A stretch of DNA of 60,753 nt, the filler included, from Bdellovibrionales bacterium RIFOXYD12_FULL_39_22 (GTDB lineage Bacteria; Bdellovibrionota; Bacteriovoracia; Bacteriovoracales; Bacteriovoracaceae), in the NCBI GenBank assembly GCA_001770205.1. It is 7 parts of 7 records of this genome, joined end to end, with 100 filler letters (N's around TTAATTAATTAA, not from the genome) between each part and the next. Parts side by side here need not be neighbours in the genome. Positions count along the whole stretch, not along the records: positions 1 to 5,323 come from MEQL01000029.1; 6 more parts are not named here. One strand, written 5' to 3'. A model generated the notes under the pieces. The model was not told where the DNA came from and ran no database searches. It worked only from the letters and a program-made list of their open reading frames with translations. Position 1 is the stretch's first letter, and each line of letters starts with the position of its first letter. This document shows, one piece after another, positions 3,653-46,915 of this stretch. The position numbers were made by a program, and so were the translations under genes.

Positions 3653-3788
3653 TGGACAGCTAGCCACATCACCCTATAAGAAATTCAATCATCTTTTTTG
3701 CCAATGATTTCGGTTACCATCGAAGTAACTTATTAACCGAACCCGGCACTCAAATGAAGAATAAACACAGAAGTTCTGGGACAATATC
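3653..3788 (+). promoter_or_regulatory. Sigma70-like promoter plus conserved structured leader, copy A
   Basis: TGGACA-N16-TATAAG, then a 55-nt core (3734-3788) that is 47/55 identical to 31024-31078 and 45/55 to 26782-26836. Confidence 0.75.
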
Positions 3789-3799
3789 GAGGATTATTT

Positions 3800-4546
3800 A
3801 TGGATAGAGTATCGTTATTTTTAGGTATTGTATTGTCTGTATTGGTCGCGCAAGCGGCAGGAAGGGTTTACGCAGCTTCTCTTGAAGGAGGAAACTACAC
3901 TCCGCTGGCCGGTGCTTCCACTTGCGACTTCCATGTCGAATCGAGTACGAAAAAACTATTTCTGACATCGATTGCAAATCAACAAACCCGTGAAAGCTGC
4001 GACGAAAATGGAAAGACTTATGAATATGAGTGCGGTTCTGATGACACCTGTACTTATAATGACGATTCTCAAGATGAACCGAAGCAGAAAAAGCTGACAA
4101 TCATTGATAGCAAAAATTTTCTTGATGGGAATACTGGTTTGAAATATGTGTTTAAAAATAGCCAGCAGGTTCTTCCCGCGCTGAAGTTTACGAGATGGGG
4201 TGTATACGGGTATCAGTCACAGCCGGCGGAAATATTCACTTCAGGGGGTGGCAATCGTTGTATGTTTCGAGTATCAGGAGAACGGATTGCCTGTAATGAT
4301 GAGACTTATGCGAGAAAAGTTTTTTGTATTCAGGCCTATTGGATTGCGGCACAGACAGCTTTGAGAGATTGCAAAAAGGAAACTGGAAAGGACTGCGTTA
4401 ATGGCGATATCTATGGCTATGAGAGAGAGCCGGACATCTATTGGTTCTCAACTTTAGGATACTACAACAAGCATTCTCAGACATATGAAGCTATAGCCAC
4501 GCTTGCTTGTAAAGCATATGTAACGGTACTTGCAGAAGAGCCATAG
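3800..4546 (+). CDS. Secreted cysteine-rich hypothetical protein
   Basis: 248-aa ORF with signal peptide (..LVAQA), GAGGA RBS and multiple Cys. Confidence 0.8.
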   Translation: MDRVSLFLGIVLSVLVAQAAGRVYAASLEGGNYTPLAGASTCDFHVESSTKKLFLTSIANQQTRESCDENGKTYEYECGSDDTCTYNDDSQDEPKQKKLTIIDSKNFLDGNTGLKYVFKNSQQVLPALKFTRWGVYGYQSQPAEIFTSGGGNRCMFRVSGERIACNDETYARKVFCIQAYWIAAQTALRDCKKETGKDCVNGDIYGYEREPDIYWFSTLGYYNKHSQTYEAIATLACKAYVTVLAEEP

Positions 4547-5323: not shown

Positions 5324-5423
5324 NNNNNNNNNNNNNNNNNNNNNNNNNNNNNNNNNNNNNNNNNNNNTTAATTAATTAANNNNNNNNNNNNNNNNNNNNN
5401 NNNNNNNNNNNNNNNNNNNNNNN
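5324..5423. other. Artificial contig spacer (N-TTAATTAATTAA-N); also at 12219-12318, 17545-17644, 26460-26559, 31738-31837, 42624-42723
   Basis: Identical 100-nt N-padded linker with stop codons in all frames. Confidence 0.98.
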
Positions 5424-12218: not shown

Positions 12219-12318
12219 NNNNNNNNNNNNNNNNNNNNNNNNNNNNNNNNNNNNNNNNNNNNTTAATTAATTAANNNNNNNNNNNNNNNNNNNNNNNNNN
12301 NNNNNNNNNNNNNNNNNN

Positions 12319-26459: not shown

Positions 26460-26756
26460 NNNNNNNNNNNNNNNNNNNNNNNNNNNNNNNNNNNNNNNNN
26501 NNNTTAATTAATTAANNNNNNNNNNNNNNNNNNNNNNNNNNNNNNNNNNNNNNNNNNNNTGAGCTGGCCCTTTTCATAGCAACTGAAGAGCTGGATCAGG
26601 CAAAGAAAAATATCGGGAATTAAGCGAAGAACTCGGTACTCTCAAGTGGCTTAAATTAATGTTTTAACACCAGTAATTTGAGTAGGTTGGCCTATGGTTT
26701 TTCAAAATCCTATCTTTTTTACAAAATTTAAACAAAAAAGAAAACGGCGCTCAGCG

Positions 26757-26836
26757 TTGTGGTAAATAGACTGTAATTTATTAACCGTCCTTTGAACTCA
26801 AGTGAAGAATAAACACAACAGTTTTGGGACAATATC
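26757..26836 (+). promoter_or_regulatory. Conserved structured leader, copy C
   Basis: Ungapped 55-nt match (26782-26836) to copies A and B, plus an upstream hairpin. Confidence 0.75.
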
Positions 26837-26871
26837 AAATCAACAGTGTTCCACTCAAAACAGGAGAAGTT

Positions 26872-27285
26872 ATGAAAAAATTATTAGTAGTTATCAGCGC
26901 TCTAGTGCTTTCGGCAAATTCATTTTCATCACAATCAGAAACATATGTCGGTGAAAATTTTATTTCATCAGATAACATACAAAAATGTAGTATAAAAATT
27001 TTAAACTCTTCAAATAAGTCGATTCTTGTGGAAGTGAATGGCTTAACTGATACCGCTCGATCAATAAACCTTCTCAAAGAACAAGATAATCTTTTTTTTG
27101 GTCGTGAAACATTCGAAGATGATACTTATTACATTGGTGGCTCAATAAATAAATTTAAAAAAGCTGTTCATCAAGTTAGCTTAGAGCTTGATAACAATGG
27201 GACCCCCATTGAATTCACTTATGAGCGTAATATTTTTGGTGGTGGATCCTTTATAGATTGCAAGTCGTTGGAGCTAGCGAAATAA
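26872..27285 (+). CDS. Small secreted hypothetical protein
   Basis: AGGAG RBS and signal peptide MKKLLVVISALVLSANSFS. Confidence 0.85.
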   Translation: MKKLLVVISALVLSANSFSSQSETYVGENFISSDNIQKCSIKILNSSNKSILVEVNGLTDTARSINLLKEQDNLFFGRETFEDDTYYIGGSINKFKKAVHQVSLELDNNGTPIEFTYERNIFGGGSFIDCKSLELAK

Positions 27286-29591: not shown

Positions 29592-29897
29592 TCAGGATAC
29601 TCTTAGTTCCTTAGATGGTTTAATAATATTTAATAAGCTTAAAAGTTTATCGATGGTGAAGACCTCAATGCGATATTTTATAATTTTATTTACCCTTGCT
29701 TTATCAATACCCAATTCGTCAGCAAGCTCGACCTGAGAAATTTTATTGGAAAGAATGTAATCCACAAATTCACGGCATAGGTCATATTTTATCTTGTCTA
29801 CAGAGGATGCATTCTTCCGATCAAGCACAAAAGTTGGTTCGACATTTTCTAGTTTTTTTAAAACTTTTTGAATCTCCTTATTGCTTGGGAATGTCAT
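29592..29897 (-). CDS. XRE-HTH antitoxin-like protein
   Basis: ISQVELADELGIDKARVNKII..FTIDKL. Confidence 0.8.
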   Translation of the reverse strand: MTFPSNKEIQKVLKKLENVEPTFVLDRKNASSVDKIKYDLCREFVDYILSNKISQVELADELGIDKARVNKIIKYRIEVFTIDKLLSLLNIIKPSKELRVS

Positions 29898-30193
29898 AAT
29901 AACCTCCTATCTCTAAACGCAGTAATAATACCTACGTAAAACCTATGATCTTCCAATAACCAGACCATTTTATAAAGCTTATCGCCGTGAGCAATTTCAG
30001 AAACAAAATATTGAAAACCTCCGTCATTTTTCTCTGCTATGTGCTCTGTATGAACCAACTCAGCGACAAGCTCAATAATTAAATCGTCAGAAATATGGTC
30101 TGAGTGTTTATCGACGTGCGGATCAATTACAATTTCTTCAATCTCTCTTTTGTTGATAATGATCGCATTAATTTTATAAACTCTTCTTTCCAT
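29894..30193 (-). CDS. Putative toxin of a TA pair (RelE/BrnT-like topology)
   Basis: Small gene overlapping the HTH gene; C-terminal YKMVWLLE..VGIITAFR. Confidence 0.6.
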   Translation of the reverse strand: MERRVYKINAIIINKREIEEIVIDPHVDKHSDHISDDLIIELVAELVHTEHIAEKNDGGFQYFVSEIAHGDKLYKMVWLLEDHRFYVGIITAFRDRRLL

Positions 30194-30508
30194 CAAGGTA
30201 GATTATAGACGAAGTAGACAAATTTGTCAACTTCGTTTTCGGCGGTTACAACTAATGAATCTTACGCTAAAACGCGAATTTTTTTGAGCAAGATTCTTTC
30301 TATCCATTCTCCGTTAGCTTGGTTGTGTTCGAATCTCATTTTTCTCCGCCACAGGTGGTAAGATTCCAAGATGTTATACCTGCACAATTTTTTTACAGAG
30401 CATGTAATTGTGAACATGAAAATTTTTTTTCAGCCATTTGGCCTTTATTTGCATGCTACACTCATTAACGTAGACGGTTTATGAGTGTGCTTCGAATATC
30501 AATTAATT

Positions 30509-30532
30509 GATATTGTCCCAGAACTGATGTGC
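30509..30532 (-). repeat. Partial copy D of the conserved leader
   Basis: 24-nt exact inverted match to 31055-31078. Confidence 0.8.
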
Positions 30533-30557
30533 GAGTCCTAACTAATCCCACAGAAAC

Positions 30558-30873
30558 TTGCTATATAAGCGAACGTTTTCAAGGGCACAGACCTTCCCTG
30601 AACTTTTAATCAAGCTCTCTTACAATTTTAAAGTGTTAAACCAACTTATGCAGAGATCTTTGTCACCGCTTCAATCTTTTCTTTGGTGTAGTTCTCAACT
30701 ACCATCTCGTTGGTAAAAGCGATTAAAACCTTCAAAAAGCCGGGAATACCCTCCCTTTCAAATAGATCGGCAGTCTCATTGATTAGCTCGTCAAAAGAAA
30801 ATGAAAGTCCTGATAGACAGGCGGTGATATTTAAAGCAATATTTTTACTGATCATGGGCCCTCCTTGGCGCAA
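30558..30873 (-). mobile_element. Internally deleted IS derivative
   Basis: Short ORF joining a start region to the tail YTKEKIEAVTKISA shared with the contig-edge copy at 17645-17804. Confidence 0.55.
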
Positions 30874-30941
30874 TTTATATTTTTAGTCGAATCTAAATTT
30901 AACCATACGGTCCATGGTTTATCAAAAAAGTGTCGATTTAT

Positions 30942-31078
30942 TTGACAGCAAAAATTACTTTCCTATAAGAATTTCAAAAGGCTATTTTCGATTTAAAATT
31001 TCGATTACCATCTAGATAGCGAATAACCGAGCCCAGCACTCAGGTGATGAATAAGCACATCAGTTCTGGGACAATATC
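30942..31078 (+). promoter_or_regulatory. Sigma70-like promoter plus conserved structured leader, copy B
   Basis: TTGACA-N16-TATAAG, then sequence colinear with 3653-3788. Confidence 0.8.
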
Positions 31079-31108
31079 CAATATCAATTAATTTCGATAG
31101 GAGAATTT

Positions 31109-31600
31109 ATGAGAATTTTACCAGTTTTATCCTTGTTAATAATGTGTACATCGTTGCCGATCTTTGCGGCGACAAATTACTCTGTCGGTGGTAGCGGATC
31201 GAAGGGAACTTTTATTAATATTGATGGGAGAAATTTTTGCTCACACAGCAAAACTAACTTAGGATATAGTTATGTTTTAACCGATCGCTATATCGCTGGG
31301 CTTATAATCAGAAATTTGGAAACGGGGGAGGCGACAACTTACAAAGATCAAGGATTTGTTCTTAGCGGAAAGTATGAAGATTCTAGGCTTTTTGAAAAAC
31401 TTGAAACACTTACAGAAAACGATATGCCACGGTATGTATTATTGGGAAAATATCGAAAATATGCAAAGAATAATGGAACCTATTTTTCACATGACTACGA
31501 GGATGAGTCTGCAGAAGAGACAACAATGACCGACAAGGGATTTTACCTCGAAATTTCATGGCAAGCCGACAACACCAATATTACATGTATCAAGCACTAG
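31109..31600 (+). CDS. Small secreted hypothetical protein
   Basis: AGGAG RBS and signal peptide ending PIFA. Confidence 0.85.
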   Translation: MRILPVLSLLIMCTSLPIFAATNYSVGGSGSKGTFINIDGRNFCSHSKTNLGYSYVLTDRYIAGLIIRNLETGEATTYKDQGFVLSGKYEDSRLFEKLETLTENDMPRYVLLGKYRKYAKNNGTYFSHDYEDESAEETTMTDKGFYLEISWQADNTNITCIKH

Positions 31601-31837
31601 CGCAAGTTTACTAAACTCATCTCGAAAAACACAGACAACTATGCAAAATATTACGCAAAACCAGCCACCTAAATATTAACCAAAACCTGCCAATAAAACA
31701 TCAAATGTAAGATCCTCAATATTAATCTAATGTTTCTNNNNNNNNNNNNNNNNNNNNNNNNNNNNNNNNNNNNNNNNNNNNTTAATTAATTAANNNNNNN
31801 NNNNNNNNNNNNNNNNNNNNNNNNNNNNNNNNNNNNN

Positions 31838-46648: not shown

Positions 46649-46915
46649 GATGTCTCCCGTGGCATTGATTTCTCAATAAAACTACACAAAGTCAACAAAT
46701 CCACCGTCTCCAAAGGGTGGACTCTCTCATTCGTGAGAGACCACTTTCTCACAAATGTGGAGCCAAATTGACGCCAAAATCACTCTCCCACGAGTGACTC
46801 ACAGCGAATTTCTACATTTCCCCAGCAAAAACTGTGAAATAAGTGCACGAAAATCCACAGAAAAGGCCCACATCTTGCTTTTTGATCACCTCTGTCATAA
46901 AGAAACCGCGTAGCT

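Follow-up and report, generated by a model that had tools for sequence, protein, structure and literature searches.

What is one conserved stretch of non-coding DNA doing in front of genes that are otherwise unrelated to each other? The question is raised by a 60,753-nucleotide (nt) window, i.e., the whole stretch of DNA that was analysed, taken from Bdellovibrionales bacterium RIFOXYD12_FULL_39_22 (hereafter G000), a predator of the family Bacteriovoracaceae whose assembly comprises 3.95 Mb in 62 contigs with 39% G+C. The initial annotation of this window had described a two-hairpin leader element shared by three secreted-protein genes, and we refer to its three copies as A, B and C. Our answer is that the element is best read as a new, family-restricted and conserved 5′ leader/expression module, with the twist that the genes standing behind it are unrelated orphans. 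Below, C numbers followed by digits denote contigs of the genome concerned, while G and L numbers denote other genomes and loci.

The window joins seven small-contig pieces through linkers (5324-5423, 12219-12318 and four further joints), each linker being the same 12-base word between two 44-N runs; copy A lies on one contig of ~5 kb, and copies B and C lie together on another. All three 55-nt cores were recovered exactly where they had been placed, at 3734-3788 (A), 31024-31078 (B) and 26782-26836 (C), and a recount returned the same identities of 47/55 for A/B and 45/55 for A/C, to which we add 44/55 for B/C. A same-strand ATG follows 11, 30 and 35 nt past the terminal ATATC of A, B and C, respectively, and the string T(T/G)GACA-N16-TATAAG described upstream of A and B was confirmed (Table 1). 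Copy C has a different upstream box (TCTTTTTTACAAAA, near 26712-26725), and its upstream region is ~90% like that of copy L151 from another genus. The statement that the three following genes are non-homologous also holds, with no BLAST similarity among the three proteins and no Pfam family. In addition, allowing up to 3 mismatches, the window contains five occurrences of the 17-mer AGTTYTGGGACAATATC where 0.42 would be expected, a count that none of 100 shuffles reached. The initial annotation had missed a fourth copy on the minus strand, in which the apical loop is deleted and stem 2 is kept; its orientation is opposite to that of copy B, it has no signal-peptide gene behind it, and a 51-nt stretch recurs identically on contig C54.

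The same arrangement was found well beyond the window. With a crude rule, a signal-peptide-like open reading frame (ORF) starts after 31 of 41 distinct copies, and two more are signal-peptide-like by eye (one with a lipobox start, the other with a start lacking a basic residue); orientation relative to the genes had been proposed as a check, and both orientation and spacing to the start codon were strict in 31-33 of the 41. The distance from ATATC to the start codon has a median of 22 nt (range 3-95 nt), and the intervening sequence is unrelated between copies. Tabulating the downstream genes likewise agreed with the first description, since the element points towards signal-peptide genes that are unrelated: among 35 downstream proteins from 18 genomes no homologous pair was found, the sole likeness being a 35-residue signal-peptide match. 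A Pfam search with the nine downstream proteins of G000 gave no family above cut-off, bar a borderline HEAT_2 on C28. For protein A, no homologue was found in 200 other genomes of the family, and the ESM Atlas returned sub-threshold lipocalin-like leads only. These downstream genes without detectable relatives mean that the non-coding module is far more conserved than anything it precedes.

Our searches also established how widely the module is distributed. G000 itself holds 13 covariance-model matches, two loop-deleted copies and one 3′ fragment. The expectation that copies would occur in relatives was borne out, as the element is present in many genera of Bacteriovoracaceae: the covariance model matched 17 of 150 other family genomes at E<=0.01 and 9 of 149 family genomes at E<=0.001, and 16 of 69 genera carried a match, the genus of G000 included, while 6 of 200 other family genomes contained a 30-nt pattern. 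L164 and L167, two matches from the weak end of the range, lie in coding-looking sequence and were left out of later counts. In a phylum-wide draw, the covariance model matched 3 of 23 Bacteriovoracaceae genomes and none of the 127 genomes from 24 other families; the element is specific to Bacteriovoracaceae. A metagenome scan gave 14 loci, eight of them identical to G000, and added little diversity, and a 17-mer scan of species-representative genomes returned, among the matches listed, mostly apparent chance matches in unrelated phyla. In line with the first description, which recognised no known riboswitch class, the element belongs to no Rfam family: the window gave no match at gathering thresholds against 4227 families (Rfam 15), and at E<=10 the region 30400-31150 gave three noise matches only (E>=3), none on the core. 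Note that identical module sequence also occurs at the ends of contigs C37, C51 and C64 in genome G148 and of C11 and C19 in genome G050, the contig-end module of G148 having one upstream context and two downstream genes; in these genomes too, the module is therefore a multi-copy, near-identical repeat that breaks assemblies.

What is conserved is larger than the 55-nt core. In a 215-nt alignment of 35 copies, conservation reaches upstream of the core in blocks that align across genera, and the whole unit is non-coding, ~165-175 bp long, with the core as its 3′ part. It begins with a T-rich run ending in a -35-like TTnGACA box, followed 16-17 nt later by a -10-like T(A/G)(T/G)AA(G/A) and then by ATTTCA; some copies carry an extra block (AAATTTAACCA...GGCC...TTTCAAAAAA), and a poorly conserved leader of ~50 nt separates the -10-like box from the core. 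In the latter, AUUAACC precedes a stem of 9 bp, with its internal loop and short GUG/CAC helix, after which comes the invariant single-stranded tail ACAAUAUC. With a strict regular expression, the TTnGACA box stands 137-143 nt before the ATATC end in 13 of 39 distinct copies from five genomes, the copies outside this set having variant boxes (e.g., TTTTACAA). Within G000, pairwise similarity starts ~20-30 nt upstream of the -35-like box, and on the 3′ side similarity is lost directly past ATATC in every copy, 3-35 nt (median 22) short of the Shine-Dalgarno sequence and start codon; a metagenome module of the B type retains 96.5% identity over 174 nt and has unrelated flanks on both sides. These sharp ends define the unit as a promoter-like region plus a leader and nothing else. 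A strict sigma-70 scan of 30850-31700 (TTGACA-16/18-TATAAT, A2 + T6) called no site in the core or in the upstream box, the box of copy B being passed over because position 6 of its second hexamer is not T, and no terminator-like site was found in the same interval. As separate observations on the tail, it is tandemly duplicated as CAATATC-CAATATC in copy B (31069-31085) and as GGGACAATATC-GGACAATATC-CAATATC in the C39 copy of G000 (near 311879), and several other copies show CATATC or CATA after it.

The pairing proposed for stem 2 was reproduced, and it is kept across 35 distinct copies. Indeed, for hairpin 2 in a MAFFT alignment of these copies, 84.0% of the cells were paired, 8 of 12 pairs changed on both sides, slid registers gave only 23-58%, and none of 500 shuffles reached the covariation score. 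A MAFFT alignment of 18 copies gave, for the whole structure, 86.6% paired cells (89.5% for helix 1 alone), 3 of 12 pairs changed on both sides, one of 500 shuffles reaching the covariation score and 25-52% for slid registers; in a model-fitted alignment of 43 rows the values were 86.3%, 9 of 12, none of 500 and 26-57%, respectively. The 3′ strand and tail (AGUUYUGGGACAAUAUC) are almost invariant, and the 5′ strand varies yet stays complementary. G-U or U-G pairs occupy 77 of 315 helix-1 cells in the 35-copy alignment, i.e., about a quarter, which favours a sense-strand RNA over a double-stranded DNA site because such pairs would be A.C mismatches on the other strand. Moreover, in 22 of 38 copies the fold of the sense strand is the more stable one (mean -8.3 kcal/mol vs -6.8 for the antisense), and the same 38 distinct hairpin segments compare with -6.2 kcal/mol for their shuffles; hairpin 2 is thus comparatively supported and thermodynamically weak. 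Two forms of the apical region were observed, GUGAWGAAUAAACAC and GUGAUGAUUUACAC, with a length difference of 2 nt, and two copies have lost this region while retaining the stem.

The other half of the proposed architecture fared differently. Stem 1, said to close on UAACCG, has an A.C mismatch in copy B and only 62.7% paired cells over 18 copies; 146 of 500 shuffles match this pairing, and the covariation falls below the shuffle mean. Local hairpins do occur in the region, differing between copies, and comparative support is therefore restricted to hairpin 2 of the two claimed.

Table 1. Positions of the module copies, the genes behind them and the M2 repeats along the 60,753-nt window
Feature	Position	Strand	Basis
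Copy A, promoter-like boxes TGGACA-N16-TATAAG	3653..3680	+	sequence; promoter function inferred
Copy A, variable leader containing the claimed stem 1	3681..3725	+	alignment
Copy A, conserved core (AUUAACCG, hairpin, tail)	3726..3792	+	covariance-model match, 78.1 bits
Copy A, hairpin	5′ strand 3742-3750, 3′ strand 3772-3780	+	pair counts
Copy A, tail ACAAUAUC	3781-3788	+	
Gene A, 248-amino-acid (aa) orphan, signal-peptide-like start	3800..4546	+	
M2 copies (contig C34)	17803-17930, 19211-19335	read on -	
Copy C, conserved core	26774..26840	+	covariance model, 86 bits
Gene C, 137-aa orphan, signal-peptide-like start	26872..27285	+	
Loop-deleted copy, stem 2 kept (UUAGGACU-CGCACAUC-AGUUCUGGG)	30505..30552	-	covariance model, 24.9 bits
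Copy B, promoter-like boxes TTGACA-N16-TATAAG	30942..30969	+	sequence
Copy B, conserved core	31016..31082	+	covariance model, 82.3 bits
Gene B, 163-aa orphan, signal-peptide-like start	31109..31600	+	

Three functions had been envisaged at the outset, namely a riboswitch, a protein-bound leader or a portable expression module controlling a set of secreted proteins. The portable expression module fits best, whereas a metabolite riboswitch is unlikely given the small and weak hairpin. The reading that we favour, and in which our confidence is about even, is a portable promoter plus 5′ leader, the hairpin and invariant tail of which are recognised in trans or set the fate of the mRNA. Such a leader is favoured because the upstream boxes are fixed, the pairing is wobble-rich on the sense strand, the orientation is strict and the element lies just 5′ of the ribosome-binding site; in addition, the almost invariant 3′ strand and tail call for sequence-specific recognition. 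Transcription would start at the upstream boxes and make the core RNA, so that the element would lie inside the 5′ untranslated region and act at the RNA level. The hairpin could then be the place at which a trans-acting factor docks or the transcript is processed; this factor, whether a small RNA, an RNase or an RNA-binding protein, would set translation or stability, and a changing set of secreted proteins might thereby be held under one shared expression programme. With an RNase, cleavage might occur at the single-stranded AU-rich tail beside the stem. In regulatory terms, the module probably gives the downstream secreted-protein genes such a common programme.

Several of our observations weigh against this reading. 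Selection accounts no better than mobility or gene conversion for near-identical modules in unrelated contexts, the neighbours on the upstream side are heterogeneous, and we found no trans-acting factor. With the two cases accepted by eye included, 8 of the 41 copies are still without a signal-peptide-like gene; these are the C61 copy and the second C38 copy (both lacking the upstream boxes), a loop-deleted copy, one copy before a truncated ORF, one before a non-secreted 371-aa protein and three without a clear gene. The strict regular expression places the boxes at a fixed distance in a minority of copies only, as given above, and the -10-like box, in which T is hardly ever the last base, departs from the textbook sigma-70 site. 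The hairpin is weak, with a mean z of -0.96 and z < -2 in only 5 of 38 copies, the whole-leader folds give z = +1.1 (A), -0.9 (B) and -1.3 (C), and RNAalifold returns -0.46 kcal/mol on the long alignment. Finally, the copies are related to each other, and the shuffle controls therefore overstate significance and are not to be taken as probabilities.

Some candidate partners of the leader were considered. One is CsrA, whose bound leaders expose GGA motifs in hairpin loops and over the Shine-Dalgarno sequence; G000 encodes one CsrA, and the GGA of the core belongs to UGGGACA and is paired, at the 3′ base of the stem, and does not lie in a loop. A candidate small RNA on C50, picked only by its promoter pattern and terminator-like end (from 74896 onwards, a sigma-54-type promoter, TGGCATATTGGTTGCA, then ~110 nt ending in a strong terminator), forms a duplex of -11.7 kcal/mol with the core vs a background mean of -11.2 kcal/mol, which denotes no special complementarity. 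Antitermination by a specialised NusG paralogue was dismissed as well, G000 having a single NusG.

The alternative that survives best, although we consider it unlikely, is an interspersed repeat without RNA function, spread selfishly or neutrally, maybe with an outward promoter, homogenised by gene conversion and bearing a hairpin that is incidental. G000 indeed contains several other interspersed intergenic repeat families, and many of its small contigs end in repeats; the near-identity of modules in unrelated contexts, the geneless remnants (C61, the second C38 copy and the loop-deleted copies) and the weak thermodynamic signal would all be expected of such a repeat. It accounts poorly, however, for the strict orientation and start-codon spacing, for a core conserved over at least 15 genera in front of genes without detectable relatives, and for a variable 5′ strand that keeps its complementarity to a fixed 3′ strand. 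Nor does the module look like the end of an insertion sequence or of a miniature inverted-repeat transposable element, a possibility that had been raised as a challenge to the leader interpretation: a search of two contigs revealed no terminal inverted repeats, the only repeat pairs involving the element there being formed between separate copies, no transposase was found among the neighbours scanned, and the plasmid and phage collections gave no element match. The single match to a viral contig was a chance match inside coding sequence, with no module there.

The second alternative starts from the neighbourhood of the module in G000, where the most abundant repeat, hereafter M2 (~125 nt, 24 copies by its 3′ anchor and 27 by BLAST), is found next to it in several ways. 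On C5 the module (M1) heads a string M1-gene-M2-gene-M2, and on C28 it stands inside a string M2-M1-gene-M2; in both, the gene-M2 units that follow it are on its own strand. C54 carries a loop-deleted copy directly beside an inverted M2, and C13 a 3′ fragment of the module fused inside an M2; both the module and M2 end in AATAT(C/T) just before a Shine-Dalgarno sequence and ATG. It is thus conceivable, though quite unlikely in our view, that the module serves as fixed head (cf. Pc-attI) to a recombination system other than an integron, in which genes are inserted past ATATC and M2 plays the part of attC. The predatory Bacteriovoracaceae would then possess an unknown system of gene capture or shuffling that makes no use of an integron integrase and places new secreted-protein genes behind ...GGGACAATATC, where they would inherit promoter and leader; with the same low probability, M2 would be the cassette spacer and AATAT(C/T) the shared junction. 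The sharp 3′ boundary with a different orphan behind it each time, the gene-M2 units and mosaic joints just described, the common AATAT(C/T) end and the tandem tail duplications of copy B and the C39 copy are all in line with capture. Against it, C5 and C28 are the only contigs on which gene-M2 units follow the module, and nine full copies are solitary, without an M2 in their vicinity, in an assembly that is fragmented at repeats; the element was, as said, not found in the plasmid and phage collections. No integron integrase was found either, the best match to TIGR02249 in G000 scoring 52.7 bits vs a cut-off of 265. Integron core sites follow the consensus RYYYAAC ... GTTRRRY (R″/R′), and none was seen by inspection. 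The stem reads YYYRR-AACU ... AGUU-YYGGG, i.e., it has the AAC/GUU but with purines and pyrimidines swapped, and conservation continues for 14 nt past GTT; we therefore rejected an integron site, for which both IntI and R/L core sites are missing.

A recombinase could have lent weight to gene capture. The G095 copy (contig C190) adjoins a divergent, 346-aa Xer-like tyrosine recombinase (L158:1768-2805) that scores below every curated cut-off (61.5 bits for TIGR02249). However, this adjacency is a one-off, and the association was not retained: no recombinase lies next to the window copies, and homologues of the protein occur in 136 of 151 genomes, where, among the matches listed, no other homologue lies on an element-bearing contig (19 further matches fall outside that list). 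Its closest relatives, again among the matches listed, share 68-69% identity and come from three genomes without the element.

A third alternative, which we regard as improbable, is that the core is itself bound as an alternative-sigma promoter, for instance by an attack-phase sigma factor, or as a DNA operator, transcripts starting at or after ATATC. So long an invariant sequence would be well suited to binding by a protein, an ATG stands only 3-7 nt past ATATC in some copies that have no Shine-Dalgarno sequence, and the 3′ half of the core, ATAAA-N15-ACAATA, loosely echoes the attack-phase FliA motif of Bdellovibrio, TTAAG-N16-CCGATA (PMC3627812). The C44 copy even reads CCGATA exactly, but it is alone in doing so, the same position reading ACAATA in 9 of the 10 listed copies; the CG is missing from the other copies by inspection, C44 itself offers no TTAAG at the -35 position, and the second apical form lacks the AATAAA run, so that a sigma-28 promoter matching TTAAG-N16-CCGATA was rejected. 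A sigma-70 promoter in the core was rejected too, none being called in 30850-31700 and CAATAT having no -35 partner by inspection. Moreover, a Shine-Dalgarno sequence lies at or before the predicted +1 in most copies (AGGAG or GAGGA 0-5 nt past ATATC in copies A, C12 and C38), separate promoter-like boxes are conserved upstream, and wobble pairing with a variable, complementary 5′ strand is unexpected of a double-stranded DNA site.

A riboswitch for a metabolite or second messenger, the fourth alternative, is very improbable. It would explain a conserved structured element that lies in a 5′ leader and is absent from Rfam, but the module has a single small hairpin and no multi-helix junction, its apical region has two forms and is dispensable in some stem-keeping copies, leaving no invariant aptamer core, and its orphan downstream genes have no metabolic theme. 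The interval 30850-31700 holds no terminator, as noted, and there is no conserved expression platform because the spacing to the start codon varies over 3-95 nt and the copies have no related sequence in this interval. The weakest alternative, a short regulatory leader peptide read from the in-frame RTG-AWG-AAT-AAR-CAC..., has a negligible chance of being right: many copies do offer an in-frame ATG, GTG or TTG and the AAR varies at its third position, but GGG-ACA-ATA is constant at its third positions, the putative start has no Shine-Dalgarno sequence ahead of it and reads ATA in the G024 copy, and the 2-nt apical difference puts the invariant half in different frames, for which reason we reject it.

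Comparison with known systems helps to place the promoter-leader module. It is formally like the leader motifs that Rfam classes as ‘Cis-reg; leader’, which share with it a conserved, sense-oriented hairpin near the ribosome-binding site, a presumed 5′ untranslated location and pairing kept through substitutions. Unlike these motifs, the module matches none of the 4227 families, includes a promoter-like region in its conserved unit, precedes unrelated orphans in place of a functional gene family, and is conserved mainly in sequence (3′ strand and tail) and less in structure. In Borrelia, the upstream homology box of the erp/OspEF-related genes is a long conserved non-coding region that stands before many exported-lipoprotein genes and gives them common regulation; the erp genes are paralogues carried on cp32 prophages, and their conserved DNA is an operator for DNA-binding proteins. 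As a shared upstream region that would give many exported-protein genes one programme, the module functions most like this box, without being a member of its kind: the genes behind the module are unrelated, its copies are chromosomal and its conserved part is RNA-hairpin-like. Integron Pc-attI/attC arrays and clusters of attC sites lacking integron-integrases (CALINs) also display a conserved, sharp-edged non-coding head before diverse orphans, and they recall the two module copies that stand in strings spaced by a second repeat, with toxin-antitoxin genes nearby; in contrast to them, the module has no IntI and no R/L sites, is mostly alone and brings its own promoter-like boxes to each gene.

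Two further systems act on many genes through one short motif. The ops element is 12 nt long and acts as non-template DNA within the transcription bubble, while the hairpin of the module spans ~45 nt, G000 has a single NusG and the genes concerned are short single units. Described as a short conserved element in the leaders of unrelated surface or secretion operons that is recognised by RfaH and acts after initiation via a hairpin (PMC5995543), ops/JUMPStart resembles the module, which is nevertheless not an ops element. The other system is the attack-phase promoter of FliA (sigma-28) in Bdellovibrio bacteriovorus, whose consensus was given above and which governs many non-flagellar genes, including uncharacterised and cell-surface proteins (PMC3627812). 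Both there and here, one shared upstream motif serves many genes of a predatory bacterium; the conserved stretch of the module is far longer than a promoter, however, and Bdellovibrio is classed in another family, from which no copy of the element was recovered. For intergenic repeats and leaders of Bacteriovorax and Halobacteriovorax, our search of open-access literature returned nothing relevant, which does not prove that no such work is in print.

The interest of the module lies in the biology of its hosts. Bdellovibrio-like predators kill bacteria with secreted proteins, the control of which is barely understood in Bacteriovoracaceae, and the module marks a candidate regulon of lineage-specific, fast-turnover secreted proteins. 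In practice, a 60-nt core with an invariant 17-nt strand offers a handle for pulling down the regulator, for listing the regulon by covariance model and for building expression tools. Should the sharp ATATC junction prove to be a point of recombination, the route by which such predators acquire new secreted proteins would become visible as well.

Other features were noticed along the way. The 3′ end of M2 (GGGCAUGGCCC) is terminator-like, with a small GC hairpin, a U-run and AAUAUU; the repeat has internal alternative pairings (GATCTTGC...GCAAGATC vs GCTCAGAAA...TTTCTGAGC), shows no Rfam match, and lies at most 25 nt from the start codon of a signal-peptide-like ORF in ~6 of 24 copies. Between the module copies of the window, a toxin-antitoxin-like pair is encoded on the minus strand (29595-30196), consisting of a 100-aa ORF without Pfam family followed by a 101-aa HTH_37/HTH_3 protein, and it has its own promoter-like site (TTGACA-N17-TATAAT).

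The loop-deleted copy and copy B form 29-nt inverted arms that are 93% complementary (30504-30532 and 31055-31083) and 522 nt apart, the 522 bp between them including the promoter-like boxes of copy B, which is the geometry of an invertible promoter. Inversion of this segment may occur but was not adopted as an explanation, given that no recombinase lies nearby, no signal-peptide gene stands on the far side, and the same-strain metagenome loci are all in the same orientation, with no flipped form seen. Lastly, two copies of G000 carry long homopolymer tracts, namely an 11-C run in the leader of a C38 copy (near 68384, minus strand) and, in the C44 copy (near 46836, plus strand), a 10-G run that separates the Shine-Dalgarno sequence from the ATG, both of which are candidate sites of phase variation by slipped-strand mispairing.

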